Shown piece by piece: positions 119 through 20,000 of a stretch of DNA of 20,000 nucleotides. The stretch's first letter is position 1. Every line of letters begins with the position of its first letter. Source of the DNA: an uncultured virus (IMG/VR IMGVR_UViG_3300037755_000799) (lineage: Duplodnaviria > Heunggongvirae > Uroviricota > Caudoviricetes); IMG/VR virus record IMGVR_UViG_3300037755_000799; one strand, 5' to 3'. The notes beneath the pieces were generated by a model, which saw nothing but the letters and a program-made list of their open reading frames with translations, ran no database searches and was not told the DNA's origin. A program made the position numbers and the translations under genes.

Positions 119-154
119 CGGACATTCGTCTACCTACTGATTGGAGGTGCGGCC

Positions 155-553
155 GTGGGATTCCGCGAGCAGCCCAACACCATCACCCTCGCCTTCGCCG
201 AGGACGACGAACTCCACGGCCTCGAAGCCACCTTGCAAGGCATGAGCATCGGCGAGTTCATGTCCTCCATGGGCTGGGATGGCGGCGACGGCGACGACAC
301 AGGCAAGACCATGGAGCGGTTCCACAAGGCGCTCATCTCCTGGAACCTCGAAGACGCCGACGGCCAGCCCATCCCCGTGAGCGCATCCCGCGAACGCCCC
401 CACCGGCTGATCCTCCGCCTCAACAACGCGTACGTCGAAGCGTTGACGGGGGTCCACAAGTCCGACCCTTTGCCCGACAGCTCCACCTCTGGCGAGAACT
501 CCCCGGCGCCCGCAATTCCGATGGCTCCCTTGTCGGAGAGCCAGGCCAGCTAG
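155..553 (+). CDS. Tail assembly chaperone (gpG-like), 132 aa
   Basis: GGAGG RBS before GTG 155; acidic protein with LISWNLED motif; lies between major tail and tape measure genes; contains an in-frame slippery heptamer. Confidence 0.8.
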   Translation: MGFREQPNTITLAFAEDDELHGLEATLQGMSIGEFMSSMGWDGGDGDDTGKTMERFHKALISWNLEDADGQPIPVSASRERPHRLILRLNNAYVEALTGVHKSDPLPDSSTSGENSPAPAIPMAPLSESQAS

Positions 554-723
554 CCCACGCCCGCTGGGTCCTCGGCCTGCTGCGCCAGTTCCCGAACTAC
601 ACCTACACGACGCTCATGCAGGAAGACACCCGCTTCCTGCGCCTGCTCGCTGTTGAAGCCCTCGGCACACCCGACGAACCCGACACCCTGGAAGGAGGCG
701 ACACATGGCCGGAGACGATGTAG
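155..723 (+). CDS. Frameshifted tail assembly chaperone (gpGT-like, about 189 aa) via -1 shift at C CCT TTG (466-472)
   Basis: X XXY YYZ heptamer in the correct phase. The -1 frame is open to TAG 721-723 (…ARWVLGLLRQFPNYTYTTLMQEDTRFLRLLAVEALG…) and fills the gap to the tape measure gene with no obvious RBS/start of its own. Confidence 0.75.
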
Positions 724-7300: not shown

Positions 7301-8245
7301 GATGAGCTGCAACCGGCCGTGAACTGGCATGAGTCCGATGGGACGTACATATCGACCAGCTCAACAGGTGGGGGGTTCGCGGTCGCGGCTGGTGTCTGGA
7401 CGTATCTGGAGGCGACGTTCACGGCTCCGGCAACCTCGTCCAGGGCTGTGATGCTGGCGCTCCACAGTGACACGCCGGACGCGGCGGACACCTGGCATGT
7501 GTGGGGGGCCCGGATCACCCACGCCACGTCCTCGGCGGTGCATGACTCGTTCACCCGCAGCGAGACGAACAGTTGGGGCACGGCTGATTCCGGACAGACG
7601 TGGACGAACACCGGTGCGGCGGCGGGGAACTTCGATGTCGATGGCGCTGAGGGAACCCACACCCTGACGGCGGTCAACTCGGCGCACCGGTCATCCGTCA
7701 CGGCGCCCAGTGCTGACTTCGACATCTACGTGGATATCGCAACCGACGCTCTGGCTGCGGGTGGTGCGCTGTATGCGGGGCCGATGGCCCGCTATACGGA
7801 TGTCAACAACCTGTATGTGGCGAGGGTGGCGTTCTCCACCACGCAGACGATAACGCTGGTCATTTTCAAGCGGGTTGCTGCCGCTCAGACGAATCTCGTG
7901 TCGTTTACGACGCGGTTGACGCATGTCGCGGGGACGTTTGTCCGGGTGCGGTTCCAGGGGTTCGGCACTGCGTTGAAGGCGAAGGTGTGGGAGGCCAGTG
8001 AGCTGGAGCCGGGGCCGTGGCAGGCGGAGGTCACTGATTCTTCCCTGACTGGTGCGGCGAGTCTGGGTTGCTGGTCGCTCGCTGATGCTGCGAACACCAA
8101 CACCAACCCGGTCATCAGCTTCGACAACTTCGATCTTGCCAATCCGCAGACGTACACGGTGAGCCGCTCTCAGAACGGTGTCGTCAAAACCCACAGTGCG
8201 GACACGGATGTTGTTCTCGCCTATCCCGCTTATGTGGGTCTCTAG
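4349..8245 (+). CDS. Large minor tail / tail-tip protein with probable lectin-like (LamG-type) and carbohydrate-binding beta-sandwich domains, 1298 aa
   Basis: TGATG overlap with the tape measure stop; N-terminal WTDITSDVR…ITRGRS…LSNTDGTYSPRNP hub-like motif; Thr/Gly/Trp-rich beta regions; LNENPFFDADTTDW resembles a CBM4/9-like start. Confidence 0.8.
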   Translation: MAFPETILPIQVDISLDGSTWTDITSDVRRAQQIRITRGRSDWGQQVDFGRCSFALSNTDGTYSPRNPEGIYYGQIGRNTPVRVSVNTGSVALDLPGSADDYISTPDAAALDIVGDIDIRIDATLANWVLHEYPSAGETAFPTTELIAKRASGQVSWGLYIRQGRPYFEWTTDGSTINTAHSSFDLPLTASGRIALRFTMDVDNGASGFDIAFYTSDTIDGTWTELDSGTTAGTTSIHSGTADLKIGDCDESALRKPALGLVHAAQVYSGIDGTLVANPDFTAQSDGATSFNDSTGITWTVAGNTEITNRKTRFVGEIASWTPRWETGGLDVVTEVEAAGVMRRLGVGVVPTKSVMYREMTAPGRIDAGIVACWPMEDGGSATEFASAFDGHPAIQITGTVTPAAYDDWVASSAVATVGTGSLRVSVPSYTVDASGRGRVGVFVKVPAAGVVSTQRLLSISQSGTARTWSVFVNTSGNLDVRAYDGDGTQIHASGFGADSVNGLEKFVLLILIQDGSDVDYELLVVDIADSLLTAVPDNAFTSFSITGTVASYTTGRFTQIRFGEDGAMNSTAIGHLSVGNAATSHTGTAGALVGWTAEEAPSRVARIGSEEDIHAYATGAGDEQCGAQPGGTALELMRAADDVDKGILAELRSVLGVRHVTRASLYDQASALTLDYTGDDGLVAPLDPVDDDQNVTNDVTEARDGGSSARVTLDTGALSTLAPPDGIGLYDTSHTTNLLDDTQPLHHAGWRLHVGTWDETRLPQVTVNLATAPSSIESATAVDVGSRIQITNPPVWLPPDTLDLMVQGYSEVMANFEWTVTYNCTPYGPWLVAWVGDDDTVEQELEFAWADTEGAELAEALSTTETDVDLLTTSGPTWTDDVGDTPFDWRVGGEVMTVTAPGGLLNENPFFDADTTDWSGNNTTIARSTAQVLPHPRAVASLLITPNGSSATGDARCTQTAVGSIQPGASYTASLWAYSPGGWDELQPAVNWHESDGTYISTSSTGGGFAVAAGVWTYLEATFTAPATSSRAVMLALHSDTPDAADTWHVWGARITHATSSAVHDSFTRSETNSWGTADSGQTWTNTGAAAGNFDVDGAEGTHTLTAVNSAHRSSVTAPSADFDIYVDIATDALAAGGALYAGPMARYTDVNNLYVARVAFSTTQTITLVIFKRVAAAQTNLVSFTTRLTHVAGTFVRVRFQGFGTALKAKVWEASELEPGPWQAEVTDSSLTGAASLGCWSLADAANTNTNPVISFDNFDLANPQTYTVSRSQNGVVKTHSADTDVVLAYPAYVGL

Positions 8246-8254
8246 GAGGTTGTC

Positions 8255-8752
8255 GTGGCTGTAACAGCATGGCGGGCAGGTGCCCGTATTACCGCGACCA
8301 GGCTTGGGGAGATGCTGCCCGTCTGGGCGGCGTGGACGCCCACCTGGACGGCCACCAACGGTACGGCTCCTGCTTATGGGAATGCGACCGTGGACTGCAA
8401 GTACGCGCAGAGTGGTGACGTCGTGTTCTTCGAGATGGAGATCACGTTCGGGAGCACCACGACGTTCGGTACTGCTGCCAACGACTCCAACTGGAGGTTC
8501 ACGCTGCCGGTGACGGCCGGGGAAACCCAGTTGATCGCAGGGTATGGCGAGGTCCAGGACGGCGCCGATTCGGCAGAGCGCTGGCCGATTCGCGCCCGCG
8601 TTGTCGCCACCACCGATCTCTCTCTCGAAACGTCCGGGCGGAATTACAACGACACTGCCAACACCAACAACGGTCTCATTGACCCGGTGACTCCGCTCAC
8701 CTGGGCCGACGGAGACCGGTTCCTGCTGCACGGCCACTACCAAGCAGCGTAA
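8255..8752 (+). CDS. Minor tail protein, 165 aa
   Basis: AGGAGG RBS; WRAGARITATRL N-terminus and WTPTWT…YGNATVDCKY…WRFTLPV motifs typical of actinophage small tail proteins. Confidence 0.7.
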   Translation: MAVTAWRAGARITATRLGEMLPVWAAWTPTWTATNGTAPAYGNATVDCKYAQSGDVVFFEMEITFGSTTTFGTAANDSNWRFTLPVTAGETQLIAGYGEVQDGADSAERWPIRARVVATTDLSLETSGRNYNDTANTNNGLIDPVTPLTWADGDRFLLHGHYQAA

Positions 8753-8770
8753 ATAGTAAAGGAGTACCAA

Positions 8771-8998
8771 ATGGCAATACAGACGCGCCACGTCGGAGTC
8801 ACCTACACGATGACCGTTGTGGACACGACGAACTACGAGACTGTAAGGCAGGCATGGTTCAGCTCCGGCGTGACAGAGGCTGAGGTCTGGGCCGCAGGTG
8901 ATGATATGGCGGCCAACCTGGAGAGCCAGGTTCCGTCGCTCGACTTCGAGGTCCGTGTCTATGAAGTGCAGGACGACGTCCAACTGACGCACCCCTAA
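8771..8998 (+). CDS. Hypothetical protein, 75 aa
   Basis: AAGGAG RBS and ATG; packs tightly between neighbours in the late operon. Confidence 0.65.
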   Translation: MAIQTRHVGVTYTMTVVDTTNYETVRQAWFSSGVTEAEVWAAGDDMAANLESQVPSLDFEVRVYEVQDDVQLTHP

Positions 8999-9016
8999 AC
9001 AGGAAGGTGCGCTTTC

Positions 9017-9469
9017 ATGGCCACCCAGTGCAAGCTCTACACCAACCAGCCGCAGACCATCGAGCCGGGCACCTGGACTGCCGTCCGCTTCGACCAAGTC
9101 CTGCGCAATGACGGCGGCATGTATCAGGGCACCGGAGACGTCACCGACCCGGAGTCCGCGCTGATCATGCCGCCGGATGACGGGGACTTCCTGTGGCTGC
9201 GCTTCGTGCACTGGGCCGCCATCACCATCCCGGACGGCGATTGCCGGGAGCGGCAGTTCCTCGCCCAGTTCGCCCGCGACCCGTACACGGTGCCGGACAC
9301 GACGGGCACGACCGACGCCGACCACACCGCGGGCAAGCAGTTCCACCTCGCCTCATGGGCGTTCTACGGCCGCGACGGCCAGCCGGTGGCGGTGCGGGTG
9401 TGGCACGACCATCACGAGCCGGTGGACATCGTGCACGCCCAGTTCGTCGCAATGACGTGGGACTACTGA
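9017..9469 (+). CDS. Hypothetical beta-rich protein (possible tail-associated), 150 aa
   Basis: Purine-rich AGGAAGG upstream, strong GC3 codon bias, located between tail and lysis genes. Confidence 0.7.
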   Translation: MATQCKLYTNQPQTIEPGTWTAVRFDQVLRNDGGMYQGTGDVTDPESALIMPPDDGDFLWLRFVHWAAITIPDGDCRERQFLAQFARDPYTVPDTTGTTDADHTAGKQFHLASWAFYGRDGQPVAVRVWHDHHEPVDIVHAQFVAMTWDY

Positions 9470-9479
9470 GGGGGTTGCT

Positions 9480-10415
9480 GTGGCCACACCACCAGGCGCG
9501 GCGAGGTTCGCGCAGTTGTTCCGCGATGAGGGTCTGACCGTTGTCGAGGTCGGCGACTGGCGCCACCACAACCGTAACCATGTCGGTGCGTGGGGTCCGG
9601 TGCACGGCGTGATGATCCACCACACCGTCACCTCCGGCTCGGCTCGCACCGTGCAGATCTGCCGCGATGGATACGTGAAGCTCCCCGGACCTTTGTGCCA
9701 CGGCGTGATCACCAAGGACGGCCGCGTGCATCTGGTCGGCTACGGGCGCACCAACCACGCCGGCTCCGGTGACCCTGACGTCCTGGCCGCGGTCATCGCC
9801 GAGCGCGCACTGCCCGCGGACAACGAGGCGAACACCGACGGCAACGCCCGCTTCTACGGCTTCGAGTGCGAGAACCTCGGCGACGGCCGCGACCCGTGGC
9901 CGGAAGCCCAGTTGGAGGCCATCGAGAAGGTGTCCGCGGCGATCTGCCGGCATCACGACTGGGGCGCGGGCTCGGTGATCGGGCACTTGGAGTGGCAGCC
10001 GGGGAAGGTCGATCCGCGCGGTTTCTCCATGCAGACGATGCGCGGCCGTATCGCGGCACGTCTCGACGGCAACCAGCAGCAAGAGGAGGACGACATGCAG
10101 CTCGACGACGAGGTGAAGCTGAACCAGTGGATACTGGACCGCTGGCCGGATGATCTGGGGATTCAGGACGGCAGCATCCTGGTGCGCACCGCGCTCGGCT
10201 CCGGGTACGCGCACGCCCGTACAGCATCGACGCTCGCCCGGGTGGCCGCCTCCAACAGCGAGAAGATCCTCACCCAGTTGGCCGCGCAGGGTTCGGTTGC
10301 GCTGACGGACGCACAGCTGGCCGTACTCGCCGACAAGGTGGCCGCGCACCCGGTGCTGGCGGAGCAGATCGCGGAGCGGGTGGCTGCGAAGCTCGCGGAG
10401 AGGCTCGCCGAGTGA
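9480..10415 (+). CDS. Endolysin, N-acetylmuramoyl-L-alanine amidase (Amidase_2 type), 311 aa
   Basis: GVMIHHT, LPGPLCH, GRTNHAG, FYGFECEN and VIGHLEWQPGKVDP Zn-amidase motifs; first gene of the lysis cassette. Confidence 0.92.
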   Translation: MATPPGAARFAQLFRDEGLTVVEVGDWRHHNRNHVGAWGPVHGVMIHHTVTSGSARTVQICRDGYVKLPGPLCHGVITKDGRVHLVGYGRTNHAGSGDPDVLAAVIAERALPADNEANTDGNARFYGFECENLGDGRDPWPEAQLEAIEKVSAAICRHHDWGAGSVIGHLEWQPGKVDPRGFSMQTMRGRIAARLDGNQQQEEDDMQLDDEVKLNQWILDRWPDDLGIQDGSILVRTALGSGYAHARTASTLARVAASNSEKILTQLAAQGSVALTDAQLAVLADKVAAHPVLAEQIAERVAAKLAERLAE

Positions 10416-10981
10416 CCGCGATTGATTACGACTGCGAGTTCTCCACTACCGCCCCCGTGATCGACCTCGTGTCGATTGCTCTCGCGGCGGATGACGGCCG
10501 TGAGTACTACGCGATCGTCAAGGACTGCAACTTCGATGCGCTGCTCGACAGCGACTGGCTGATGGCCAACGTGGTACCCACGCTTCCCCTCGGGCTTGGC
10601 CATGACGGTGTGGGCCGCATCCTCGCCTGGGACCCCGATCTGCCGGACTTCGACAAGGTGAAGCCCCGCGAGCAGATCGCCCGGGAAGTGCAGAGCTTCG
10701 TTCTCGGCACCGACGCCGAGCAGATCCCGTACGTCGAACTCTGGGCCAACTACGGCGCATACGACCATGTCGCCCTGTGTCAGCTCTTCGGCTCGATGAT
10801 CGATCTGCCGGAGGGGTTCCCGATGTGGACCAACGACATTCAGCAGGAACGGGCCCGGCTCGGTCTCGCCTGGGACGAACTCCCGAAGCAGGAGAGCGGC
10901 GAGCACAACGCGCTGGCGGACGCCCGCCACAACCGAACCGTCCGGCGCTGGCTCGCCGAACAGGAAGCGAGAACGTCATGA
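10412..10981 (+). CDS. DEDDh 3'-5' exoribonuclease (Rv2179c / RNase AS-like), 189 aa
   Basis: YDCEF (ExoI), WANYGAYDHVALCQLFGSMIDLP (ExoII) and HNALADA (ExoIII with His) motifs; 4-bp overlaps with both neighbours. Confidence 0.85.
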   Translation: MTAIDYDCEFSTTAPVIDLVSIALAADDGREYYAIVKDCNFDALLDSDWLMANVVPTLPLGLGHDGVGRILAWDPDLPDFDKVKPREQIAREVQSFVLGTDAEQIPYVELWANYGAYDHVALCQLFGSMIDLPEGFPMWTNDIQQERARLGLAWDELPKQESGEHNALADARHNRTVRRWLAEQEARTS

Positions 10982-11319
10982 AGATCTTCGGCCGTGAGCC
11001 CGCGCTCATCATCGCCGCCATATCGGCCGGCCTGTCGCTGCTGGTCACCTTCAACTTCGGTCTGTCCGCTGAGCAGGCGGGCACGATCGTCGCCGTCATC
11101 TCCGGCGTGTTCGCCGCAGCCACAGCGACGATCACCCGACCGATCGCACCGTCCGCGTTCACCGGGCTCGTCGCCGCGGTCGTCGCACTCTTCGCCGCCT
11201 ACGGCTTCAGCGTCTCAGCGGAGACCGTCGGCGCCCTCAACGCCATCGTGCTCGCGGTCCTCGGACTGCTCACCCGCGGCCAGGTATCCCCGGCGGCCAC
11301 GCCCGTCAAAGGCGCCTGA
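10978..11319 (+). CDS. Holin, 113 aa
   Basis: ATG at 10978 overlaps the upstream TGA; MKIFGREPAL… with about four hydrophobic segments and C-terminal TRGQVSP, typical of actinophage holins. Confidence 0.8.
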   Translation: MKIFGREPALIIAAISAGLSLLVTFNFGLSAEQAGTIVAVISGVFAAATATITRPIAPSAFTGLVAAVVALFAAYGFSVSAETVGALNAIVLAVLGLLTRGQVSPAATPVKGA

Positions 11320-11356
11320 CCCTGCCCGATGAGCGCGGCGGGGAGGCGGTGGTGGC

Positions 11357-11623
11357 GTGGACGCGGCCATGGTCACCGCCCTAGCCGCTCTGGTGGCGGG
11401 GCCGGTGGCTGCGGCGGCAGCTATGTACGGCCAGCGCGGCGCGAACAGGGCGGCCCGGGAGGCTAGCGCAGTGACGGGATACGACAGCCTGACGCAGCGG
11501 CTGGTCGCGGAGCGGGACAAGGCGGAGTCCGATCAGGCGAAGGCGGAGGCGCGCGTCGAGGTCCTCGAACTGGAGGTCGCGCGTCTGCGACTGCTGGTGA
11601 CGCAGCTCGGGGGGCAGCCGTGA
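11357..11623 (+). CDS. Membrane-anchored coiled-coil protein of lysis cassette, 88 aa
   Basis: GGGAGG upstream; N-terminal hydrophobic helix followed by a heptad-like charged helix. Confidence 0.7.
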
Positions 11624-12288
11624 CGCGGGCGGAGCGTGCCTTGTATCGCAGTCGGCACATGCTGTGGATCACGGCTGCGCTGCTGTTCCTCGGCGGGCTG
11701 GTGCTGCTGTCGCTGCTGTTGATCGGCCGGGAGGTGGATGCGCGTCAGCAGCTCGCGCATGAGGCCGGCTTGCGGGGGGAGGCGGTGTCGGTGTTGGCGG
11801 GTGATGTGCGGGCACTGCGGCAGCAGTTGGAAGCGGAGGGTGAGACGCCGGTGGCGCCGGACCCTAGCCGGGCGGTGGAGGGTTTACCGGATCGGGTGGA
11901 GGTTCCGGTGCCGATCCCGGGACCGCGGGGTGTACGGGGTCCGAGGGGGGAGCCTGGGAAGCCCGCGCCTACGATCACGCCGAGCCCGGGACCGTCCGGT
12001 CCGGCGGGGAAGGACGGCGCGGACTCCGCCGTCCCCGGCCCTGCCGGGCCTGCAGGTCCTCCTGGTGTGGACTCCACCGTCCCGGGTCCTCAGGGGGAGC
12101 GTGGGGAGAAGGGCGATACCGGGGAGCGTGGAGCGGCCGGGCCTTCGTGTCCGGAGGGGTATTCGCTGCAGGCGCCGTCGTACGACCCGGATGCGTTGGT
12201 GTGCCGTCGTGATGGTGCGCCGGATCCGGGTGAGCCGGGGGGTTCGCAGGCTGCGGCGTTGGATCCGCAGCGGCGTCAGTACGTGTAG
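11620..12288 (+). CDS. Membrane-anchored collagen-like (Gly-X-Y) protein, 222 aa
   Basis: GTGA overlap; N-terminal TM segment, coiled coil, [15 protein letters not shown] / [10 protein letters not shown] / [20 protein letters not shown] triplets, then a C-x17-C pair. Confidence 0.8.
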
Positions 12289-12305
12289 GGGAGGAGGTGA
12301 GTCTT

Positions 12306-12356
12306 GTGTTGGATCTTCTTGTGCAGATCTGTGTGTCCCTGTCGCTGTGCCTCTGA
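12306..12356 (+). CDS. Small hydrophobic peptide MLDLLVQICVSLSLCL (16 aa)
   Basis: Very strong Shine-Dalgarno AGGAGGTGA (12292-12300) with GGAGG 8 nt before GTG 12306; TGA 12354-12356; lies just before the terminator. Confidence 0.5.
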   Translation: MLDLLVQICVSLSLCL

Positions 12357-12372
12357 CCGGCGCCACACGCGT

Positions 12373-12418
12373 GCCCTCGTCGTCGCTCTCGGAGCAGGCG
12401 GCGGGGGCCGTTCTTGTT
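12373..12418 (+). terminator. Probable intrinsic terminator of late/lysis operon
   Basis: GCCCTCGTCGTCGCTC-TCG-GAGCAGGCGGCGGGGGC stem-loop (G-U pairs, one bulge) followed by CGTTCTTGTT. Confidence 0.65.
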
Positions 12419-12435
12419 GCGCCTGAACCCGGAGC

Positions 12436-12494
12436 GTGTAGCGCGCTTGACATTCCGCCATCGATGCGGGAGTCTATGTGTAGCGCGCTACACA
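12436..12494 (+). promoter_or_regulatory. Promoter (TTGACA-17-GAGTCT) flanked by two palindromic operators
   Basis: TTGACA 12447-12452, GAGTCT 12470-12475; perfect 18-bp palindrome TGTGTAGCGCGCTACACA 12477-12494; imperfect copy GTGTAGCGCGCTTGACA 12436-12452 overlapping the -35. Confidence 0.75.
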
Positions 12495-12520
12495 AGGTGG
12501 CGTCAGGGAGGAGACCCACC

Positions 12521-13045
12521 ATGCAGGCCACCATCGCCGACATCCGCCGGGGCGACCGCTTCACCCGACTGACCGGACGCGGCGGCACCTACATCGCCCT
12601 TCGCGCAGCCAAGGGCGCGCATGGGGCCCGTGGCCCGAAGAGCCGCGTCATCGTCGTTGACGACCAGAATGATCAGCGTGGCCCCGACGGAGTGATCGAC
12701 CTTGGCAACCAGGCCGACCGCAAGGCCCACATCATCGACCCCCCGTCGGACACGCCGGTCGAGATCCACGAGCGAGGCCTGAACCTCCACCACGAGTCCG
12801 ACGACCCGCTGCCCTTCACCGACACCCCCAACCCGCACCTCGCCAACAAGACCGACAGGGAGTCGGAGGCGGACAGGCTGCGGGAGCACATCCCCAACGT
12901 CGTTGGGCAGATCGCAAATCTGGGCAGTGAGCGCGACGTCCTCATCAAGCAGGCTCTCGCCGCAGGCGTCTCCGTCATCGAGCTTGCGGGGCTGACCGAC
13001 CTGAGCCGAGCCCGTATCTACCAGATCCGCGACGGCCGCCGCTGA
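12521..13045 (+). CDS. Two-domain protein: unknown N-terminal domain plus C-terminal HTH (Aca-like autoregulator candidate), 174 aa
   Basis: GGGAGGAG RBS before ATG 12521; C-terminus RDVLIKQALAAGVSVIELAGLTDLSRARIYQIRDGRR is a helix-turn-helix; own promoter and operators upstream. Confidence 0.8.
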   Translation: MQATIADIRRGDRFTRLTGRGGTYIALRAAKGAHGARGPKSRVIVVDDQNDQRGPDGVIDLGNQADRKAHIIDPPSDTPVEIHERGLNLHHESDDPLPFTDTPNPHLANKTDRESEADRLREHIPNVVGQIANLGSERDVLIKQALAAGVSVIELAGLTDLSRARIYQIRDGRR

Positions 13046-13094
13046 ACCGCTAACAGCGGCAACGCGCGGACGCTACGCTCCTCCGAGTCGGGTC

Positions 13095-13184
13095 GCGTTG
13101 TCCGCGCGAGCGGATGTGAACCATGGGCTGCCCCGTGGGGCTCGACGAGTTGAGGTAGCTCTCCGCGCGAGCGGAGGTAGACGG
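13095..13184 (+). CRISPR. Type I-E-like CRISPR mini-array: two 29-nt repeats and one 32-nt spacer, no cas genes in window
   Basis: R1 13095-13123 GCGTTGTCCGCGCGAGCGGATGTGAACCA; spacer 13124-13155 TGGGCTGCCCCGTGGGGCTCGACGAGTTGAGG; R2 13156-13184 TAGCTCTCCGCGCGAGCGGAGGTAGACGG. Identical 14-nt hairpin core TCCGC-GCGA-GCGGA at a 61-nt period, the type I-E geometry. Confidence 0.85.
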
Positions 13185-13215
13185 GCCCCTGGAGACGGGG
13201 GCCTTCGTCGTCTGC
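13184..13215 (+). terminator. Terminator-like hairpin closing the mini-array transcript
   Basis: GGCCCC-TGGAGACG-GGGGCC stem immediately after repeat 2, followed by TTCGTCGTCT. Confidence 0.55.
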
Positions 13216-13386
13216 TTCGGCAGGTGGCGGGGGCGTAGTCTCCTGGTAGGGGCGTCCCGTGCGTGACTGCGCAGCACGCGCCCTCAAGAGCAGGGGACTG
13301 GGGTCCTGGCGGTGGCCAGGCTTGAACGATCAGAGCTGTACTGCGCCCACCCCTTGTGGCTGTCCGACGGCGGGACCCGGACGGCG

Positions 13387-13566
13387 CTACGCCGCCTCCA
13401 CCACCTCGGCCCGTACCGCGGCCGCCCACTCCGCGATCAGCCGCTCATACACCGCCCGCTGACCGTCGTCGAGCCGTACCGACGGGTGCGGCCACAGCGC
13501 ACGGATCTCCTCGTTCACGACGGCAGCAGACCGCACGGAACCAGGGCGCTCGAACGTCGGGGGCAT
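13387..13566 (-). CDS. Small hypothetical protein, 59 aa (below ORF-track cutoff)
   Basis: MPPTFERPGSVRSAAVVNEEIRALWPHPSVRLDDGQRAVYERLIAEWAAAVRAEVVEAA*; good GC3 bias, helical; TAGACT -10-like hexamer 6 nt upstream of ATG. Confidence 0.7.
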   Translation of the reverse strand: MPPTFERPGSVRSAAVVNEEIRALWPHPSVRLDDGQRAVYERLIAEWAAAVRAEVVEAA

Positions 13567-13740
13567 GGTCTGAGTCTAACGATCGAGACAGCCCGTCACT
13601 CATCGGCCTCCTGCCGGAAACGCACCCCGCCCCACACGAGAAAGACCCCCACGGACCGCAATCCGTAAGGGCCTTACCCAAGTACCGCCGTCGGCCGAGG
13701 CGTACCGTTCCAAGTGTCGAAGCAAGGAACGGAGACCAGT

Positions 13741-14991
13741 ATGCCCCACCCCACCGACACAACAGGAGACCTCCCCGGCGGTCGCATCAAGGACTACCGG
13801 CTCGCACGAGGCCTCACCCAAGAACAACTCGCCGACCGCGCCGGCCTCAGCCTCGGCGTCGTGAAGAAACTGGAACGCGGCGGCAAGGGCCATCTGGACA
13901 CCTACCACGCGCTCGCCCGCGCCCTCCACGTCCGCACCTCCGCCCTGTTCGAGCCCGGCGCACCCCACGCCACCACCCGAGGCGACGCCGACAAAGTCGA
14001 CCTCATGCCGCTCCGGCAGGCCATCACCCCACCCATGACCGCGACCGGCCGCATCCTTCCAGTGGACACCATCGAACCCGAACCCGACCTCCGCAACCTC
14101 CGCACCACAGCCGACGCCCTCGCCGCCTCCTACTACAGCGACGACTACGGCCGCACCGCGCAATTCCTCCCCGCCCTCATCAACAGCGCCCGCCACGCCG
14201 TCACCTACTACGACCAAGGCCCCCAGCATGTTGAGGCCGTCACCCTGCGATCCGACGTCCTCCAACTCGTCGGCCGCTACCTCACCCAGGTCCGCGCCTA
14301 CGACCTCGCGCACACCGCCCTCCGAGACGCGCTCACAGACGCGACGACGGCCAGAGACGAAGCACGGGCGGCTGCCGCCGTGTACCTCCAAGGCTGGCTG
14401 CTGACCAGGCAGGGGCGCCTCGACGAAGCAGAGCGGCTCACCTTGACCACGGCGGACGAGGTGGAGCCCCGGATCTCTCGCGCCACCAAGACAGAACTGG
14501 GGGTGTGGGGGCGCCTGCTGATGCGGTCGTCGGCCGCCGCAGCCCGCAACAACCGTCCGCAGGAGGCACGCGAGATGCTCCGGCTCGCCAGCACGGCCGG
14601 CTCCGCTCTTGGCGGCGCGGTCGCTTCTTACTCGTACGGCTGGGGGAAGTTCGGCGGGTCTGCTGTCGCGCTGCAGGCAGTGGAGAACCTTCTTGTGGCT
14701 GAGCAGCCTCGCCGTGCGTTGGGGCTCTCGGTGCGGCTGCCGGTGACGGGTTCGGCCGCGACGGCGAACACGTGGAACCGGCACCTGTTGGACGTGGCGC
14801 AGGCGCATGTGATGCTGCGGCAGGCCGATGAGTCGACGGCTGTACTGGCCGGGCTGCATCGCCAGGCGCCGGAGTGGCTACGGCATCAGCGGATGGCGAA
14901 GGGCACGTTCGAGCGGTCGCTGCGTGCTTCGGGCCGACGCCGGCTGACGGGGCAGCAGCGCGAGTTGGCCGGGTTCTTCGGGGTGGCGTAA
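13741..14991 (+). CDS. XRE-family HTH regulator with long helical (TPR-like) C-terminal domain, 416 aa
   Basis: GGAGA RBS before ATG 13741; RIKDYRLARGLTQEQLADRAGLSLGVVKKLERG HTH; HLLDVAQAH and APEWLRHQR motifs of Streptomyces XRE-helical regulators. Confidence 0.88.
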   Translation: MPHPTDTTGDLPGGRIKDYRLARGLTQEQLADRAGLSLGVVKKLERGGKGHLDTYHALARALHVRTSALFEPGAPHATTRGDADKVDLMPLRQAITPPMTATGRILPVDTIEPEPDLRNLRTTADALAASYYSDDYGRTAQFLPALINSARHAVTYYDQGPQHVEAVTLRSDVLQLVGRYLTQVRAYDLAHTALRDALTDATTARDEARAAAAVYLQGWLLTRQGRLDEAERLTLTTADEVEPRISRATKTELGVWGRLLMRSSAAAARNNRPQEAREMLRLASTAGSALGGAVASYSYGWGKFGGSAVALQAVENLLVAEQPRRALGLSVRLPVTGSAATANTWNRHLLDVAQAHVMLRQADESTAVLAGLHRQAPEWLRHQRMAKGTFERSLRASGRRRLTGQQRELAGFFGVA

Positions 14992-14996
14992 GGGCT

Positions 14997-15047
14997 ATGT
15001 TCCGTAGCCGTTCGGTGGCGGCAGGTTAGCGAACGGCTACGGAACAT
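14997..15047. repeat. Perfect 18-bp inverted repeat (operator pair or terminator)
   Basis: ATGTTCCGTAGCCGTTCG (14997-15014), 15-nt spacer, CGAACGGCTACGGAACAT (15030-15047). Confidence 0.85.
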
Positions 15048-15127
15048 GACTGTTGAAGGGCGTCGTCGCTCCGTAGCTTCACGGGTGTGAGACAGGTCAC
15101 CGCACACCACGGCCCGGGGAGCGCAGC

Positions 15128-15343
15128 GTGAGCGCCACAGCCAGAAGCGTCCAGACCACGATGGACCCGCCGCCCCTCGTGGGCTTACCGCCGAGGTGGC
15201 CGGCCATCGCCGCCGACTGTGGGGTGTGTGCGGCCCTGGCCCGGCAGCGCGACGAGGCCGCGAAGGCTGGGGACATGTCGCGGGTCTCGGACTGCAACGT
15301 CGAGATACGCAACCACCAGCACGACACCCCGGAACCGTCGTGA
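15128..15343 (+). CDS. Small Cys/His protein (CxxC…C…H), 71 aa
   Basis: GGGGAG RBS; DCGVCAALARQR…SDCNVEIRNH putative metal ligands. Confidence 0.7.
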   Translation: MSATARSVQTTMDPPPLVGLPPRWPAIAADCGVCAALARQRDEAAKAGDMSRVSDCNVEIRNHQHDTPEPS

Positions 15344-15549
15344 GTAGCAGCGGGTGGCAGTGGCGTGACAGTGGCAGCAGTTCCGGCCGCATGCAACGCG
15401 TCGCGAGCAACGGCGCGTACAACCGGATGATGGCCGCGTACCGCGCCTACCTCGGCCATGCCACCGCATGCGTGGACTGCGGGCATGGTGAGACGCGGTG
15501 CGAGACGGCTACGGAGTTGTGGCGCGCCTATCAGGCTGCGCGGTCGTAG
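15340..15549 (+). CDS. Small His/Cys protein (HxxxCxxC…C), 69 aa
   Basis: GTGA overlap with upstream stop; YLGHATACVDCGHGETRCETATELWRAY. Confidence 0.7.
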   Translation: MSSSGWQWRDSGSSSGRMQRVASNGAYNRMMAAYRAYLGHATACVDCGHGETRCETATELWRAYQAARS

Positions 15550-15596
15550 ACCCCCGGGGCCCGGCCTCTGCTGATACGCCACCGGGCTGCGGGAAG

Positions 15597-15635
15597 GGGC
15601 GGCCGCCCTACGCCCCCGTAGTGGGGCGGCCGCCC
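15597..15635. terminator. GC-rich hairpin between convergent genes (bidirectional terminator candidate)
   Basis: GGGCGGCCGCCC (15597-15608) and GGGCGGCCGCCC (15624-15635), each self-complementary, with inner CTACG/CGTAG pairing. Confidence 0.55.
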
Positions 15636-15636
15636 G

Positions 15637-15870
15637 TCAACGCACGAGATCAGCGAGGGGGGCGTTGAGCGCGTCAGCGATGAGAAGCAGGTGGTCGATG
15701 CTCGTCGCATGGGTGGCCTGCTCAACTCGGTTGATGGTCTTGCGGTCGAGGCCGGCCGCTTCGCCGAGTCGCTCTTGTGTGAGCTTTTGGCGCTTGCGTT
15801 CGGCCCGGACGCTGTCCCCGATGGCTCGACGGCGTTGAAGTACCCAGTCGGGCAGGGGATCGGTCGGCAC
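15637..15870 (-). CDS. Small XRE-family HTH regulator, 77 aa
   Basis: IGDSVRAERKRQKLTQERLGEAAGLDRKTINRVEQA…LLLIADALNAPLADLV, a classic HTH_3 pattern. Confidence 0.88.
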   Translation of the reverse strand: MPTDPLPDWVLQRRRAIGDSVRAERKRQKLTQERLGEAAGLDRKTINRVEQATHATSIDHLLLIADALNAPLADLVR

Positions 15871-15876
15871 CCGTCA

Positions 15877-15921
15877 ACGCTGGTGGGACCACTGATCATT
15901 GTCTGTACCAGCGTTGGTACA
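15877..15921 (-). promoter_or_regulatory. Putative leaderless promoter of small XRE gene with adjacent palindromic operator
   Basis: Minus strand CAGACA-17-CAGCGT ending 6 nt before GTG 15870; palindrome TGTACCA-GCGT-TGGTACA at 15904-15921. Confidence 0.5.
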
Positions 15922-15964
15922 TTCCTGAGTACGGGTCGACGCGGGTCAGCAACCTCCCTGCGGA

Positions 15965-15980
15965 TAAAACGCCCGTTCGA
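15965..15980. promoter_or_regulatory. Possible actinobacterial LexA (SOS) box
   Basis: TAAAAC-GCCC-GTTCGA versus consensus TCGAAC-N4-GTTCGA (2 mismatches), intergenic. Confidence 0.35.
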
Positions 15981-16103
15981 GTGACATCCGTTGCTGATCG
16001 TTGCATAACGCAAGCTTCACCCCAACGATTGCTTGCACCCCCCACGTACCGGGCACGCAACCCCGCGCACCCGAGACGGACCCAGCCCTAGGCGGACCAC
16101 CGG

Positions 16104-16328
16104 ATGACCGAGCAGCCCGACCCCACACAGGGCCGCACCCTCACCAACGAACAAGCCGCACGCCTCGACTTCGCCCGGCGCGACCTCGAAACCGCCCGCG
16201 CCGCAGACCTCGCGCAACTGCCACACGGCGGGCTCATCCTCCAAGTCGAAAGACTCCGCGGCCGCCTGGACGACATGCTGCTCCTCGTCGACGAGATCAG
16301 CCAGGCCAGCCCCAAAACGCAGCAGTAG
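16104..16328 (+). CDS. Hypothetical helical protein, 74 aa
   Basis: ATG ORF with good codon bias immediately upstream of the integrase. Confidence 0.7.
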   Translation: MTEQPDPTQGRTLTNEQAARLDFARRDLETARAADLAQLPHGGLILQVERLRGRLDDMLLLVDEISQASPKTQQ

Positions 16329-16439
16329 CCTGCCGCCACGCTGATCAGCGAAGATCCCCGAGCGTAACCCACCCCTCTGGCATACCTTGGCGCCTGACAA
16401 CCTCCACGAGAGAGATGTGTCCCGCGCTACCCTCAACCC

Positions 16440-17984
16440 ATGCCGATCGCGCCCGAGTACCTGCACATGGTCCACCCCGGCGTCACCTTCAACGCCCTCC
16501 TCTACGGCCGCGCCTCCCGCGACCCCAAGAAGAAGGGCCGCTCCGTCGCCGACCAGATCAACTCAGGCCGCGACCTCTGCAACAGCTACAACTGGCCCAT
16601 CGCCGAAGTCTTCGACCAAGACGTCGACCGCTCCGCCTCCCGCCACGCACGCCGCCAGCGCAAAGACTTCGAGGCACTCCTCACCGCCATCGAGGCAGGC
16701 AAGGGCCGCATCGTCGTCGCATGGGAAGCGTCCCGCTACTACCGGGACATCGAGGCGTACATCCGGCTGCGCAACGCGTGCATGGCCGCGAACGTGCTGC
16801 TCTGCTACAACGGGCAGGTCTACGACCTGTCCAAGCGTGAGGACCGCAAGGCCACCGCGCAGGACGCCATCGCCGCCGAGGACGAAGCCGAAGGCATCCG
16901 CGACCGCGTCCTGCGCACCACCCGCGCACAGGCTAAGAAGGGCCTCCCCCACGGGCGCCTGCTGTACGGGTACGGCCGCCGCTACGACCCGGAGACCGGC
17001 GATCTCATCGAGCAGTACCCCCACCCCGAGCAAGGGCCCACCGTGCTGGAGGTGTTCGAGCGGGTCGCAGCAGGCGAGACCGAGTACTCGATCCTCCAGG
17101 ACCTCAAGACGCGCGGCGAACGCACGCCCGGCGTCGAGTGGGACTACTACCACCTGCCGAACATGCTGCGGAACGTGGGCTACAAGGGGCGACGCCTGCA
17201 CCGCGGGGAAGACTTCGGCGAGGCAACGTGGCCAGCGATTGTGCCGGAAGAACTCTTCGACCAGGTGCAGGAGATCATCGGGGCTGAGTCTCGGAGCACG
17301 GTGCGGGACTACGCGGTGAAGCATCTCCTGTCGGGGATCGCACGCTGCGGACAGTGCCCGGACCACCCGCATCTTCGTGTGGGAAAGTCGCGCGGTTACC
17401 TGGTGTACGGCTGCTCGGCCCGGTTCGACGCGCAGATGAGCAAGGACAAGCTCGACGCCTACGTCGAGGAGGCCGTCATCGTATGGCTGGGCTCGCGGGC
17501 CGCGGTGGCGGCGTTCCAGTCGGATGAGCAGGAGAAGCGGGCCGACCGGGCGCGCGCGCGGCAGAAGGCGCTGGAGCGGCAGTTGGGCGAGGCGCGGGAA
17601 ATGTCGGCGACGTTCAAGGCGGACGGGGTGACGCCGCGCCTGTCCCTGGCGTCGCTGGCGGTGCAGGAGGATCGGCTTGTGCCGCAGATCGAGGCCGCTA
17701 AGGCGGAGGCTCAGGCGATGGACGCGCCGCCGCTGGTGCGCCGGCTGGTCGGCCGGCCGGATGTTCAGGAGATCTGGAACGACGAGTTCACGATCGAGCA
17801 GCAGCGGACGGTGTTGCGTGCGGTCGTCAACATCCGCCTGAACAAAGCCCGGAGCCGGGGTGTGCGCACGATTGAGCCGGGCCGCATCACGCTGCGGTTC
17901 TATGGGGATCCGGAGTTCAGGGACCAACCACGTTATGCCCGCGGGAGCGTTCCCGCTCCGGCTGCTGAATCGGGAACGGAATGA
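16440..17984 (+). CDS. int: Large serine recombinase (phage integrase), 514 aa
   Basis: LYGRASRD catalytic Ser motif, SVADQ, AWEASRYYRD, GRLLYGY, recombinase domain (WPAIVPEELFDQVQ), LLSGIARCGQC zinc ribbon and coiled coil. Confidence 0.95.
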   Translation: MPIAPEYLHMVHPGVTFNALLYGRASRDPKKKGRSVADQINSGRDLCNSYNWPIAEVFDQDVDRSASRHARRQRKDFEALLTAIEAGKGRIVVAWEASRYYRDIEAYIRLRNACMAANVLLCYNGQVYDLSKREDRKATAQDAIAAEDEAEGIRDRVLRTTRAQAKKGLPHGRLLYGYGRRYDPETGDLIEQYPHPEQGPTVLEVFERVAAGETEYSILQDLKTRGERTPGVEWDYYHLPNMLRNVGYKGRRLHRGEDFGEATWPAIVPEELFDQVQEIIGAESRSTVRDYAVKHLLSGIARCGQCPDHPHLRVGKSRGYLVYGCSARFDAQMSKDKLDAYVEEAVIVWLGSRAAVAAFQSDEQEKRADRARARQKALERQLGEAREMSATFKADGVTPRLSLASLAVQEDRLVPQIEAAKAEAQAMDAPPLVRRLVGRPDVQEIWNDEFTIEQQRTVLRAVVNIRLNKARSRGVRTIEPGRITLRFYGDPEFRDQPRYARGSVPAPAAESGTE

Positions 17985-18450
17985 CGGAGCTGCGCTCAGG
18001 CGGCTTCTGTTTCTGGCTGCGCATCAGGTCGTCATAGGCGGCCAGCGTTTCACAGACCAAGGCGGCACGTTTCTCCTCGAACTCTGCCGCCATCTTCCCG
18101 CGTTCGACGATCAGGGTGGCCGCTGCGTGGGCGCGGTCGGCGGCCGCGGCGCGCATGAGCCGCTGCTGGTCGTTTTCCAGCACGGCCTTAGCGGCGAAGT
18201 ATCCGTCGCGTTCGTCCCGCGCTGCTTGGGTGGCGTCAGCCAGTTGGCGGCGCTCGTCGGTGGTGTTGGTGACCCATCGTCTGATCGAGGTGAGGGCGAC
18301 CAGTGTGAGTGCGGTCGCGGTGAGACCGACCCCGGCGGTGGAGTGTGCGGGGTCGCCTCGCATGACGCCATAGAGAATTGCTGCGAGACCTGTGACCAGG
18401 ACCACCGCCGCTGCGGTGACGGTGGTCCGATTGCCGGCCGTGAGATCCAT
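17917..18450 (-). CDS. Membrane protein with two N-terminal TM segments and a coiled coil, about 177 aa
   Basis: Two hydrophobic helices then a charged helical domain; downstream of and co-oriented with the repressor; overlaps the integrase 3' end by 68 bp. Confidence 0.7.
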   Translation of the reverse strand: MDLTAGNRTTVTAAAVVLVTGLAAILYGVMRGDPAHSTAGVGLTATALTLVALTSIRRWVTNTTDERRQLADATQAARDERDGYFAAKAVLENDQQRLMRAAAADRAHAAATLIVERGKMAAEFEEKRAALVCETLAAYDDLMRSQKQKPPERSSVIPFPIQQPERERSRGHNVVGP

Positions 18451-18463
18451 GCACACCCCCGGG

Positions 18464-18913
18464 TTACATGCGTGCTGCTGTTCCTCCGCGGGTGTCGTCG
18501 TCGGCGGCTTCTTGTGGGCGGGCGAGTTTGTCGACGACTGCGCGGAACATCATTTTGCCCACGTCGTCGGTGATGCCGAGCCGCTCTGCCGTGTCCTCTA
18601 CGGAGTTGGACTCGGAGCCTACCTGTGACGAATCAGTTTCGGACAGTGTCCGAAGTGATTCGGGAGAAATCAGCTCGGTTCTAATGAGCAGGTCGATGGG
18701 GCTCATCTTGATCGCTTCGGCGAGAGGGCCGAGGAATCGCAGCTCAGGGATGGCTTGGCCGTTGAGCATGCGGGAGATGCTGCTCTCGGACATGCCGGTA
18801 TCCCGGGCGAGTCGGGCTTGGGACCCGTGGCCGGTGTAGCCAGCACGCTGGGCCGCTGGGACGACGACTACAGCGAAGCGCTGCGCGTGCGTGGGGGGCG
18901 TGGCATCGGTCAT
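18464..18913 (-). CDS. Immunity repressor (CI-like XRE HTH), about 149 aa
   Basis: GSQARLARDTGMSESSISRMLNGQAIPELRFLGPLAEAI HTH; divergent from a Cro-like gene, next to the integrase; ATG 18913 is the likely start. Confidence 0.85.
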   Translation of the reverse strand: MTDATPPTHAQRFAVVVVPAAQRAGYTGHGSQARLARDTGMSESSISRMLNGQAIPELRFLGPLAEAIKMSPIDLLIRTELISPESLRTLSETDSSQVGSESNSVEDTAERLGITDDVGKMMFRAVVDKLARPQEAADDDTRGGTAARM

Positions 18914-18928
18914 GTCTCGAAACTGTAC

Positions 18929-19112
18929 CTCCCTAGTTAGGGAGTATCCAGAAAATCCCTGAAGCGCAAGAGTCGCGATCACGCCAGCCACCTGCATTAA
19001 CGCAGGTCAGTCCGGCATCTAGGTGAAAGTTCACATAAAACCACCCCCTACTGCCCTGCAACTTTGCTTGCGAGGGAGGGAGGAATATGGAAGAGTCTCC
19101 CTCGTGAGCAAG
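18929..19112. promoter_or_regulatory. Genetic switch region with four related 16-bp operators
   Basis: CTCCCTAGTTAGGGAG 18929-18944; ATCCCTGAAGCGCAAG 18955-18970; TTTGCTTGCGAGGGAG 19063-19078 (reverse complement CTCCCTCGCAAGCAAA); CTCCCTCGTGAGCAAG 19097-19112. Confidence 0.75.
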
Positions 19113-19169
19113 GAAACACCCCCTGTCAGAGAAGACCCCCACCAACCACCCCCCGAGGGAGGTGACTAC

Positions 19170-19394
19170 GTGTTCCGCCTCGACGTACCCAAACTCCTCG
19201 AAGCCGCAAAGAACCGCGGCGACGACACCCAGGCCAAGATCAGCCGCCGGACCGGAATCGCCGAATCGTCCGTGTCCCGCTACCTGCGCGGCGAAGCCCA
19301 GCCCGACCTGAACTCGGCCATGCGCCTCGCCGAGCAGTACGACCTCGACCTGCGAGGCGTGATCAAGCGCGTGCCCATCGAGGCCGCCGCATGA
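19170..19394 (+). CDS. Cro-like HTH regulator, 74 aa
   Basis: GGAGG RBS before GTG 19170; TQAKISRRTGIAESSVSRYLRGEAQPDLNSAMRLA HTH; divergent from repressor. Confidence 0.85.
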   Translation: MFRLDVPKLLEAAKNRGDDTQAKISRRTGIAESSVSRYLRGEAQPDLNSAMRLAEQYDLDLRGVIKRVPIEAAA

Positions 19395-19579
19395 CCCGCG
19401 AACAGCGCCGCGCGCTCCTCGGCGACGCCGTCATCGAGCACATCCACGAACTCGTCGAAGCCTCCCCCGAGCCGGGGCCCGAGCTGATCAGTCGGCTCCG
19501 TCTGATCCTCGCGCCGGCTGCGGCTCGCTTGCAGGCACGTAAGGCGTCCGAGGCGGCTGCGGCGGCCGACGCCGCCTGA
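19391..19579 (+). CDS. Early hypothetical protein, 62 aa
   Basis: ATGA overlap with the Cro-like gene; good codon bias. Confidence 0.7.
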   Translation: MTREQRRALLGDAVIEHIHELVEASPEPGPELISRLRLILAPAAARLQARKASEAAAAADAA

Positions 19580-19672
19580 CCCATTACGCGCCGAAGGGCC
19601 GCTCCGACTGCCAGGCCCGAGCGACCCCACGACTGGCGACCACACCTTCAACCACAGAAAGCAGAGGTCACC

Positions 19673-19975
19673 GTGACCATCAATCCTACTGATCTCCCCG
19701 GCGCGTCGATCGCCGTGATGACGCTGGCGCAGAAGCCGCAGGCGCGGCCGAAGGTCGTCCCGCCGGTGGAGGCGCTGTATCAGCCGGTGCCGTCCGATGC
19801 GTATGCGCCGCCGCTGGACCTCGCGTTGCGTCTTGCGCGGGAGGACTTGGCCGTGCAGCAGTGCGCGAACATTCACGACCGCGAGGCCATGATCAGGGCG
19901 GCTGTGACGCTGGAGATCCGGCTGCGGATGTTGCTGGCGGCGCTGGACGCGGACGCGGCGGGGGTGCCGGCATGA
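19673..19975 (+). CDS. Early hypothetical protein, 100 aa
   Basis: GAGG RBS before GTG; ATGA overlap with the next ORF. Confidence 0.7.
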   Translation: MTINPTDLPGASIAVMTLAQKPQARPKVVPPVEALYQPVPSDAYAPPLDLALRLAREDLAVQQCANIHDREAMIRAAVTLEIRLRMLLAALDADAAGVPA

Positions 19976-20000
19976 GCGCCGAGCACCTGAAGCGGACGGT
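19972..20000 (+). CDS. Start of next early gene (truncated)
   Basis: ATG 19972 overlapping the upstream TGA; MSAEHLKRT…. Confidence 0.5.

Follow-up and report, generated by a model that had tools for sequence, protein, structure and literature searches.

A cas-less mimic of type I-E CRISPR repeats in a Streptomyces-type temperate phage and its possible aim at host casA operators

What would a phage do with two CRISPR repeats and a single spacer, and with no cas gene beside them? This question is raised by positions 13,095 to 13,184 of a 20,000-nt stretch of DNA (hereafter the window, always at its full length) from the uncultured virus IMG/VR IMGVR_UViG_3300037755_000799, a part of a temperate tailed phage of Streptomyces type with a G+C content of about 65-70% that apparently derives from a sediment metagenome. 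A first-pass annotation, made from the letters alone, had read these positions as a phage-encoded type I-E mini-array shaped to yield one CRISPR RNA (crRNA) for the Cascade complex of the host, which could serve to attack competing phages or plasmids, to repress a host gene such as a cas promoter, or to act as an RNA decoy. Our comparisons support the core of this reading: the element appears to be a cas-less, selected mimic of type I-E repeats that should yield one crRNA-like RNA, given that it resembles I-E repeats, that the parts predicted to remain in the mature RNA are conserved, and that the unit is kept across phage lineages. Among the three proposed uses, repression at a host cas promoter fits best because of an AAG-flanked near match to the CreR operator of one host locus, and the other two fared poorly. 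CreR and CreA are degenerate host mini-CRISPRs through which Cascade represses cas or toxin promoters by partial pairing proximal to the protospacer-adjacent motif (PAM) (bioRxiv 10.1101/2023.03.10.532045). Cracr RNAs are described in a second preprint (Liu et al., bioRxiv 10.1101/2024.10.29.618823) as their viral homologs, which act both by repression of casA and by competition with crRNAs. We lean, at somewhat better than even confidence, towards a Cracr-like hijack in which host Cascade would be led onto an operator upstream of casA, with competition for Cas proteins as a by-effect.

The element itself is made up of the following parts, in which psiR and psiS denote the repeat-like and spacer-like segments:

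13074-13094, plus strand: conserved leader, with a -10-like hexamer at 13074-13079 that is invariant in 5/5 family members and with no conserved -35
13095-13123, plus strand: repeat-like unit 1 (psiR1), with a hairpin at 13100-13115 followed by an 8-nt handle at 13116-13123
13124-13155, plus strand: spacer-like segment (psiS) of 32 nt, with a PAM-proximal conserved part at 13124-13148 and a variable tail at 13149-13155
13156-13184, plus strand: repeat-like unit 2 (psiR2), with a hairpin at 13161-13176; its diverged tail is also the 5' arm of the terminator hairpin
about 13177-13215, plus strand: terminator-like G+C-rich hairpin found by folding, which closes the module and is kept in 5/5 family members

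A repeat search returned two copies (13101-13117 and 13162-13178) that are 94% alike, with a start-to-start spacing of 61 nt, and an exact 14-nt hairpin core stands in both, at 13101-13114 and 13162-13175. The two 29-nt repeats with an identical hairpin, set 61 nt apart around a 32-nt spacer, are present as first described. With up to two mismatches allowed, the core matched the window four times compared to a mean of 1.04 in dinucleotide shuffles of the window, the four matches being the two exact copies and their own near-palindromic reverse readings. Both repeat hairpins and the third hairpin fold as predicted (-74.8 kcal/mol, z = -3.0). The third hairpin, which had been proposed as terminator-like, was not flagged by a simple terminator scan because its T-run is weak. 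The earlier statement that the window lacks cas genes also held, given that no Cas protein was detected among the 22 window open reading frames (ORFs) scanned with Pfam and PHROGs (132 mechanical ORFs in total), and a search of 4 related virus records, among them 3 carriers of the element, gave no Cas6e or Cas7 family match.

Two further features of this short region were considered. An ATG with a Shine-Dalgarno-like run 7 nt upstream lies across the psiR1/psiS junction (13122-13157) and is kept in all five family members. We rejected the small ORF that would start at 13122, given that neither its frame nor its length is conserved: the extra base of the window shifts the frame after 4 codons, and the lengths across members would be 11, 18, 50 or more codons. 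Pairing is also possible between part of the leader (13087-13094) and the conserved spacer in its distal half (13139-13146), and would enclose repeat 1. We do not claim this leader-spacer helix of the consensus fold, which rests on two one-sided changes that keep pairing and is broken by one change.

The first-pass annotation had named an actinobacterial I-E repeat that resembled the two units, and this resemblance was borne out in the comparison with Streptomyces I-E arrays. The same 14-nt core recurs at a 60-62-nt period in at least 135 bacterial genome stretches, and nearly all of the 80 listed are Streptomyces arrays. Among the matches listed, the 29-mers around the core form 308 variants, and one Streptomyces 29-nt repeat, identical to the sequence named there, accounts for 108 copies; psiR1 and psiR2 each agree with it at 24/29 positions. 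The asymmetric decay that had been described stands in part. The parts that would be kept in a mature RNA agree with the host repeat at 26/29 positions (the psiR1 handle at 7/8 and the 5' part of psiR2 at 19/21), and the parts that would be discarded agree at 22/29. The mini-array has the canonical features of a type I-E repeat (29 nt, a stem-loop, an 8-nt 3' handle and a period of about 61 nt). Acquired, differing spacers with turnover at the leader end, as in a canonical array, were not found in it, nor were cas genes in the same genome (22 window ORFs and 4 related virus records). We also dropped the notion that the psiR2 tail resembles a natural repeat variant, since that likeness rested on a single Gemmatimonas metagenome bin (L070). 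Judged by these alignments, the two units are genuine mimics of type I-E repeats.

If the unit encodes an RNA, the positions that matter should be visible among its relatives. The order leader-psiR1-psiS-psiR2-terminator was found in four IMG/VR records (two of them identical here) and in one metagenome contig, which with the window gives five distinct lineages of phage, prophage or metagenome origin (the window, L150/L162, L157, L161 and L200; these are our own labels). The DNA downstream of the terminator cannot be aligned among the five, and homologous loci with unalignable flanks preserve the 61-nt period and the hairpins. The HTH (helix-turn-helix) gene of the module lies upstream in 4/5 lineages, and a different DNA-binding-like gene is present in the remaining one. 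Over 13054-13235, contigs from four other metagenome runs show 0 to 3 differences from the window, and a loop change at 13169 (repeat 2) in a relative population keeps the four-base loop. No family member was found in 401 sampled genomes of Streptomyces species. The 8-nt psiR1 handle is identical in 5/5 members and the hairpin stems are kept; the psiR1 loop varies among four-base forms, and both sides of the psiR1 closing pair are changed in the window with pairing retained.

The spacer shows a graded pattern. Among psiS columns, 3/24 proximal ones vary compared to 7/8 distal ones (Fisher p = 2.6e-4, which is only indicative because columns were treated as independent and the sequences are few and related). 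The spacer variation between related phages that the first-pass annotation had suggested looking for is accordingly present in the distal part and nearly absent from the proximal part. The three varying proximal columns are a substitution at 6, a one-base insertion at 12, by which the window psiS has one extra base relative to the four other members, and a substitution at 21. Type I-E Cascade flips out the guide bases at positions 6 and 12, and two of the three proximal changes fall at these positions. The L200 lineage has three repeats and two spacers, the second spacer being a diverged tandem duplicate of the first (22/31 identical) that differs from it at the seed. Given that the first 24 nt are shared by 5/5 lineages and that the second L200 spacer is a duplicate, we read the spacer as inherited and duplicated, not as acquired memory, and the unit as one that evolves as an RNA gene with a constrained PAM-proximal guide region. 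As a separate observation, two IMG/VR contigs (L139 and L146, at about 1400-1650 of each locus) hold clusters of several I-E repeat variants with short or no spacers; these clusters are followed by a terminator and look like multi-specific repeat mimics.

A constrained PAM-proximal guide region calls for a partner, and we looked for one upstream of casA in 41 loci from genomes carrying this repeat type. At ten Streptomyces casA loci we found a degenerate mini-array that lies 70-130 nt upstream of casA in antisense orientation; its handle is good, and its second hairpin differs slightly in sequence. In 9/10 of these the best or near-best nearby partner site is AAG-flanked and agrees at 12-15 of 17 paired positions, most of the mismatches being at guide positions 6 and 12; AAG is the PAM of the Streptomyces avermitilis I-E system. 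The nine are listed here:

L216, L220, L237, L238, L239, L241, L247, L252 and L299: host CreR-like mini-arrays with an AAG-flanked partner site 100-200 nt away

The tenth candidate, L242, had no partner site. From the AAG-flanked partners of nine of the ten mini-arrays we conclude that Streptomyces I-E loci carry putative CreR-operator pairs. Three host spacers of the same repeat type are identical to the phage psiS at 15, 14 and 14 of 24 positions, and the other 66 handle-like candidates reach at most 11/24. In one host genome, G328, the operator upstream of casA was the top-scoring site of a 1,200-nt region for the family spacer, the window spacer and the second L200 spacer alike. The fits at the G328 operator were as follows:

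Family spacer (L161): 13/15 paired positions; 0/20,000 shuffles reach the score
L157 spacer and first spacer of L200: 13/15 paired positions
CreR of the G328 host itself: 13/15 paired positions
Second spacer of L200: 12/15 paired positions; 1/20,000 shuffles
Window spacer: 11/15 paired positions; 27/20,000 shuffles

Across the 41 cas loci, a score of 13/15 was reached at 4 of 360,732 positions, and of the 2,939 AAG-flanked sites the G328 operator was the sole one at that score. The second L200 spacer fits the seed of this operator exactly where the first spacer fails. In 5/5 family members the handle ends in A, compared to a final G in 2,360/2,569 host repeat copies, and the G328 host CreR handle has a terminal A as well. 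During this survey we also saw Cse1 (casA) matches within open frames of about 1,550-1,650 aa in G422, G441, G427, G449, G440, G439, G004, G414 and G444, which, from frame length and family matches, suggests that many Streptomyces genomes have a second I-E-like system with Cas3 fused to Cse1.

Wider searches for a target gave little beyond this operator. The spacer search of phages and plasmids that the first-pass annotation had called for returned no match below E = 0.7: across 50,697 phage records and 72,556 plasmids, all matches of the window, family and second L200 spacers had E >= 0.7, and the family spacer pattern was found in IMG/VR in its four carriers only. No credible partial self-target was found in the window (best seed run 9), and none was found in the carrier phages G005, G006 and G512. 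Spacer matches were no better than those of a reversed control in the array flanks (626 kb) or in the casA-upstream regions of 37 loci. In 401 Streptomyces genomes, a 24-mer with at most 3 mismatches matched in 38, every inspected site being coding and the reversed control columns being at least as busy (not counted exactly); in the same 401 genomes a degenerate operator pattern found only G328 and one unrelated terminator hairpin. Matches in 47 host genomes were not commoner than in the control, and the two best lay in coding sequence without an AAG flank. The PAM with 17 nt matched twice in 50 host genomes versus four times in the control, 41 further host genomes gave 29 places with a similar control (2 of 6 chosen sites were read, both coding-like), and in 151 genomes of relatives the pattern was too loose, with matches at chance level; five of these genomes (G472, G489, G497, G506 and G511) are flagged as unpublished, and none of our claims depends on them. 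No perfect seed match at a cas promoter was found in the genomes searched.

The one other match of note lies in IMG/VR contig L138 (7.4 kb), where 501-523 agree with the first 23 positions of the window spacer in all but one (22/23), the mismatch being at position 6. The site lacks an AAG flank and falls within a gene for a 3'-5' exonuclease of DNA polymerase A type; the last 8 spacer positions are unmatched, and the L138 protein has no relative among the 50,697 phage records. By our estimate, about 0.3 matches to a 20-base pattern of this type would be expected by chance in the collection.

With the repeat mimicry, the module architecture, the conservation pattern, the host CreR-operator pairs and the near match to one operator in hand, we infer transcription, processing, Cascade loading, repression and the true host from sequence, and we propose the following course of events. 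The RNA gene would be transcribed together with, or just after, an autoregulated HTH gene that precedes it. Host Cas6e would cleave at the 3' base of both hairpins. The one RNA released, at about 13116-13176, would start with a correct 5' handle of 8 nt and carry a guide-like body of 32 nt before its 3' hairpin. This RNA would be loaded into host Cascade instead of immune crRNAs, and the complex would be expected at an AAG-flanked operator upstream of casA, the site presumably used for autorepression by the CreR of the host itself. Binding would occur without Cas3 cleavage, given that only the first 18-24 or so guide positions are constrained. Bound Cascade would then shut down cas expression, and the Cas proteins would also be competed for. 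The earlier proposal of a cas-less phage element built for a single Cas6e-processed and Cascade-loadable RNA is in this way supported by comparison.

Several known systems come close to this arrangement, and the principle is not new, given that viral mini-arrays, Racrs and Cracrs, including type I-E ones, are already described. We found no paper on this element in the literature, though the supplementary tables of the two CreR/Cracr preprints, which lay outside the search, may list it. The closest likeness is to Cracrs as set out in the preprint (10.1101/2024.10.29.618823): a degenerate mini-array borne by a phage outside CRISPR-Cas loci, with a 5' handle in the first repeat and a 3' hairpin in the second. 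The type I-E arrays described there hold two or three spacers, and the case that was tested, from a Salmonella prophage, has a psiS of 24 nt; constraint on our element is likewise limited to the PAM-proximal part of the spacer. The relative L200 has two related spacers that differ at the seed, and Cracr arrays are described there as aimed at variant loci. An HTH-containing gene stands alongside our element, and the preprint reports an association of Cracrs with acrIF24. Like a Cracr spacer, ours resembles host CreR spacers and operators upstream of casA. The element differs from the tested I-E case in that the host here is Streptomyces rather than Salmonella, although Actinomycetota are among the target phyla that the preprint names. 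Its partner is an uncharacterised beta-barrel and HTH protein with palindromic operators of its own, unlike that of Cracrs, and the sampled host CreRs lie below the working criterion of the preprint, by which the viral spacer and a host CreR spacer have 9 or more PAM-proximal pairs in common.

Host CreR/CreA units share the psiR-psiS-psiR layout, the asymmetric repeat decay and the partial PAM-proximal pairing to an AAG-flanked site; their design keeps a 5' handle in psiR1 and a 3' handle in psiR2 (bioRxiv 10.1101/2023.03.10.532045). Unlike CreR, which sits in the host cas locus beside its target, the unit described here is a phage accessory module without cas genes or a nearby target. Racrs are solitary repeat units of phages that serve as RNA anti-CRISPRs (Camara-Wilpert et al. 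2023, PMC10651486). They are likewise phage-borne CRISPR repeat mimics, the I-F case is processed by a Cas6-type enzyme, I-E candidates are active in Pseudomonas, and Racrs often lie in anti-CRISPR loci; a Racr is a single repeat without a functional spacer, whereas in our element the spacer is conserved and lies between two repeats set exactly at array spacing. The mini-CRISPR arrays of viruses, as summarised in a review (PMC11656645), also lack cas genes, hold one or two spacers and rely on host Cas proteins. Their repeats are identical to those of the host and their spacers match related viruses, whereas the repeats of our element are degenerate at the ends that would be discarded and our searches turned up no viral protospacer, the L138 match being at chance level.

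A number of findings weigh against the proposed hijack of Cascade onto a casA operator. No exact target was found, and the family spacer mismatches the G328 operator at guide positions 2 and 11; the first of these falls within the seed, which makes it probable that the true host is one other than G328. The window spacer, with its extra base at 12, fits the G328 operator less well (11/15), and either the operator of its own host differs or this copy is slightly off. The best host CreR in the 41 cas loci sampled (L299) agrees at 7/9 of the first positions, for the family spacer and the second L200 spacer alike, compared to the 9 or more of the preprint's criterion. The conserved part of the spacer is G+C-rich and not promoter-like in itself. 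The family comprises five lineages only, so that the conservation statistics are weak and inflated by relatedness. Lastly, the 22/23 agreement in L138 points to a different use, though about 0.3 such matches are expected by chance.

We considered whether other explanations would account for the element better. In a pure decoy of the Racr type, the hairpins would tie up Cas6e and Cascade subunits in useless complexes and the spacer would have no target. Repeat mimicry in a cas-less phage context is just what Racrs show, an exact target was absent from all searches, the repeat-variant clusters of L139 and L146 look like such mimics, and at L275 a solitary I-E-like repeat comes after a relative of the HTH gene. 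For a decoy any spacer would do, yet conservation of the first 24 positions equals that of the hairpins and the last 8 drift, the spacer family resembles host CreR spacers and one host operator, and the Racrs described are solitary units, not two repeats at exact I-E spacing. We consider a decoy unlikely given that it leaves the conserved spacer unexplained. Superinfection exclusion, in which the RNA would send host Cascade-Cas3 against competing phages or plasmids as in the mini-arrays of archaeal viruses, would suit the full 32-nt spacer geometry and the L138 agreement, and most viral mini-array spacers are aimed at related viruses according to the review (PMC11656645). The L138 site has no AAG flank, a mismatched end and a protein without phage relatives, its match is near chance expectation, nothing under E = 0.7 appeared in the phage and plasmid collections, the IMG/VR hits to the family pattern were its four carriers, and the spacer looks inherited and duplicated rather than acquired. 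An attack on competitors, for which no credible protospacer was found, is in our judgment rather more doubtful still.

The RNA could also direct Cascade to repress a gene other than the cas operon, in the host or in a phage, such as another defence system or a lysogeny function. The constraint pattern would be the same as for the casA operator, and the abstract of a preprint on host crRNA-like RNAs has them repressing promoters of other immune systems. We found no partial self-target in the three carrier phages or in the window, and the sole match beyond chance is the CreR operator upstream of casA, which makes repression of a different gene improbable. A variant of this idea, to which we assign an equally low probability, is that Cascade would be used as a programmable repressor of another gene of the host or of a rival phage, that the longer spacer of the window has been retargeted, with the L138 polymerase-exonuclease site as one candidate, and that the outcome would be lysogenic conversion and not anti-CRISPR; in that case the co-conserved beta-barrel and HTH protein would have the part of a dedicated partner, such as a new anti-CRISPR/regulator fusion that times RNA production. 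Finally, the element may have no CRISPR function and be a decaying remnant, the beginning of a small ORF, or a structured 3' untranslated region and terminator that belong to the HTH gene. The entire stretch folds strongly, and an ATG with an upstream purine run is conserved in all members; but the frame and length of the small ORF are not conserved, and the 61-nt period, both hairpins and the handle are kept across five lineages with unalignable flanks. A lack of CRISPR function seems to us very improbable. The Cracr-like hijack of Cascade onto a casA operator is the reading that we retain.

The mini-array is the last gene-like part of a module whose order is an operator-flanked promoter, an HTH gene, the mini-array after the stop codon and a hairpin terminator. 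Its upstream features, of which the promoter and operator roles are predicted from a direct reading of the sequence, are these:

12436-12494, plus strand: promoter-like region
12436-12446, plus strand: 11-nt putative operator copy, adjoining a -35-like hexamer at 12447-12452
12470-12475, plus strand: -10-like hexamer, separated from the -35-like hexamer by a 17-nt spacer
12477-12494: 18-nt perfect palindrome (putative operator) over the predicted start site
12521-13045, plus strand: gene for a 174-aa HTH protein, with an ATG at 12521 and a Shine-Dalgarno-like run 9-14 nt upstream

The hexamers and operators are likewise conserved in L157, L161 and L200, with the 17-nt spacer between the hexamers being variable. 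A generic sigma-70 scan did not call the region at 12436-12494. The arrangement of promoter and operators looks like the signature of an autoregulated promoter. The C terminus of the 174-aa protein matches a PHROG HTH family, and its 42 homologs, all unnamed, come from Streptomyces genomes or metagenomes. Its structural model (mean predicted local distance difference test score of 90.9) starts with a small beta-barrel at the N terminus, followed by a long helix and, at the C terminus, the HTH; no solved structure in the PDB matched it significantly by sequence profile or by fold (E <= 0.001), and a weak likeness of the barrel to translation-factor barrels was not used. We rejected the 435-aa ORF at 11738-13045 as an over-extension that is real only from 12521, given that tblastn conservation begins near residue 223-240. 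The protein is likely the autoregulator of the module, with a putative Aca-like role. At L275, just past position 1314, a single I-E-like repeat with a different hairpin type, a possible solitary repeat unit, lies no more than about 60 nt beyond a relative of the C-terminal HTH domain of this protein; L281 may hold a similar one.

The right edge of the module is marked by contigs of metagenome run X4, in which 13209 or 13211 is joined directly to 13386. The segment at 13210-13385 is missing from the related virus record G001 and is replaced by 6-8 other letters in the X4 contigs; no gene, tRNA or Rfam family was detected in it, and relatives without the module have a different A+T-rich hairpin ahead of 13386. 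G001 (71.4 kb, with terminal repeats) is the nearest related virus record and aligns with the window over 1-10090 and 13386-20000. Since 10090-13386, including the mini-array module, is missing from it, the mini-array lies in a variable accessory region that reaches from the lysis genes to the leftward lysogeny-side genes. The genes around this region were annotated with Pfam and PHROGs:

705-4349: tape measure gene
4349-8245: large minor-tail protein gene
9480-10415: amidase endolysin gene
16440-17984: serine integrase gene
18464-18997, minus strand: repressor-like HTH gene
coordinates not stated: an RNase-H-like gene and a holin-like gene

Two long overlapping frames (11620-12288 and 11738-13045) precede the mini-array, the first of which encodes a collagen-repeat protein with a hydrophobic N terminus (PHROG minor tail family, E = 2.5e-36). 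No DNA match, near or distant, was found in the phage collection for 12000-14500 or for 13040-13260. An Rfam E-value search of 12000-14500 gave no credible family, CRISPR-DR included (best E = 3.4, with every match well under its gathering score), and no tRNA or tmRNA was found in the window. Spacers from host arrays of two Streptomyces genomes partly match the window at 13826-13847 (22 nt, 1 mismatch) and 16839-16859 (21 nt, exact). When 1,977 distinct host spacers were compared with the window and with L001, the matches were partial only, of at most 22 nt, and too short for host assignment.

If the proposed hijack is true, the module described here would be a Streptomyces-phage case of RNA-based counter-defence against type I-E CRISPR-Cas, with a defined set of parts. 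The phage spacer could then act as a probe, by which a host would be identified from its operator sequence alone. Our comparisons also imply that Streptomyces I-E systems may be autoregulated by CreR-type mini-arrays with AAG-flanked operators, and such autoregulation would bear on the weak endogenous I-E activity in many strains and on the use of these systems in genome engineering.

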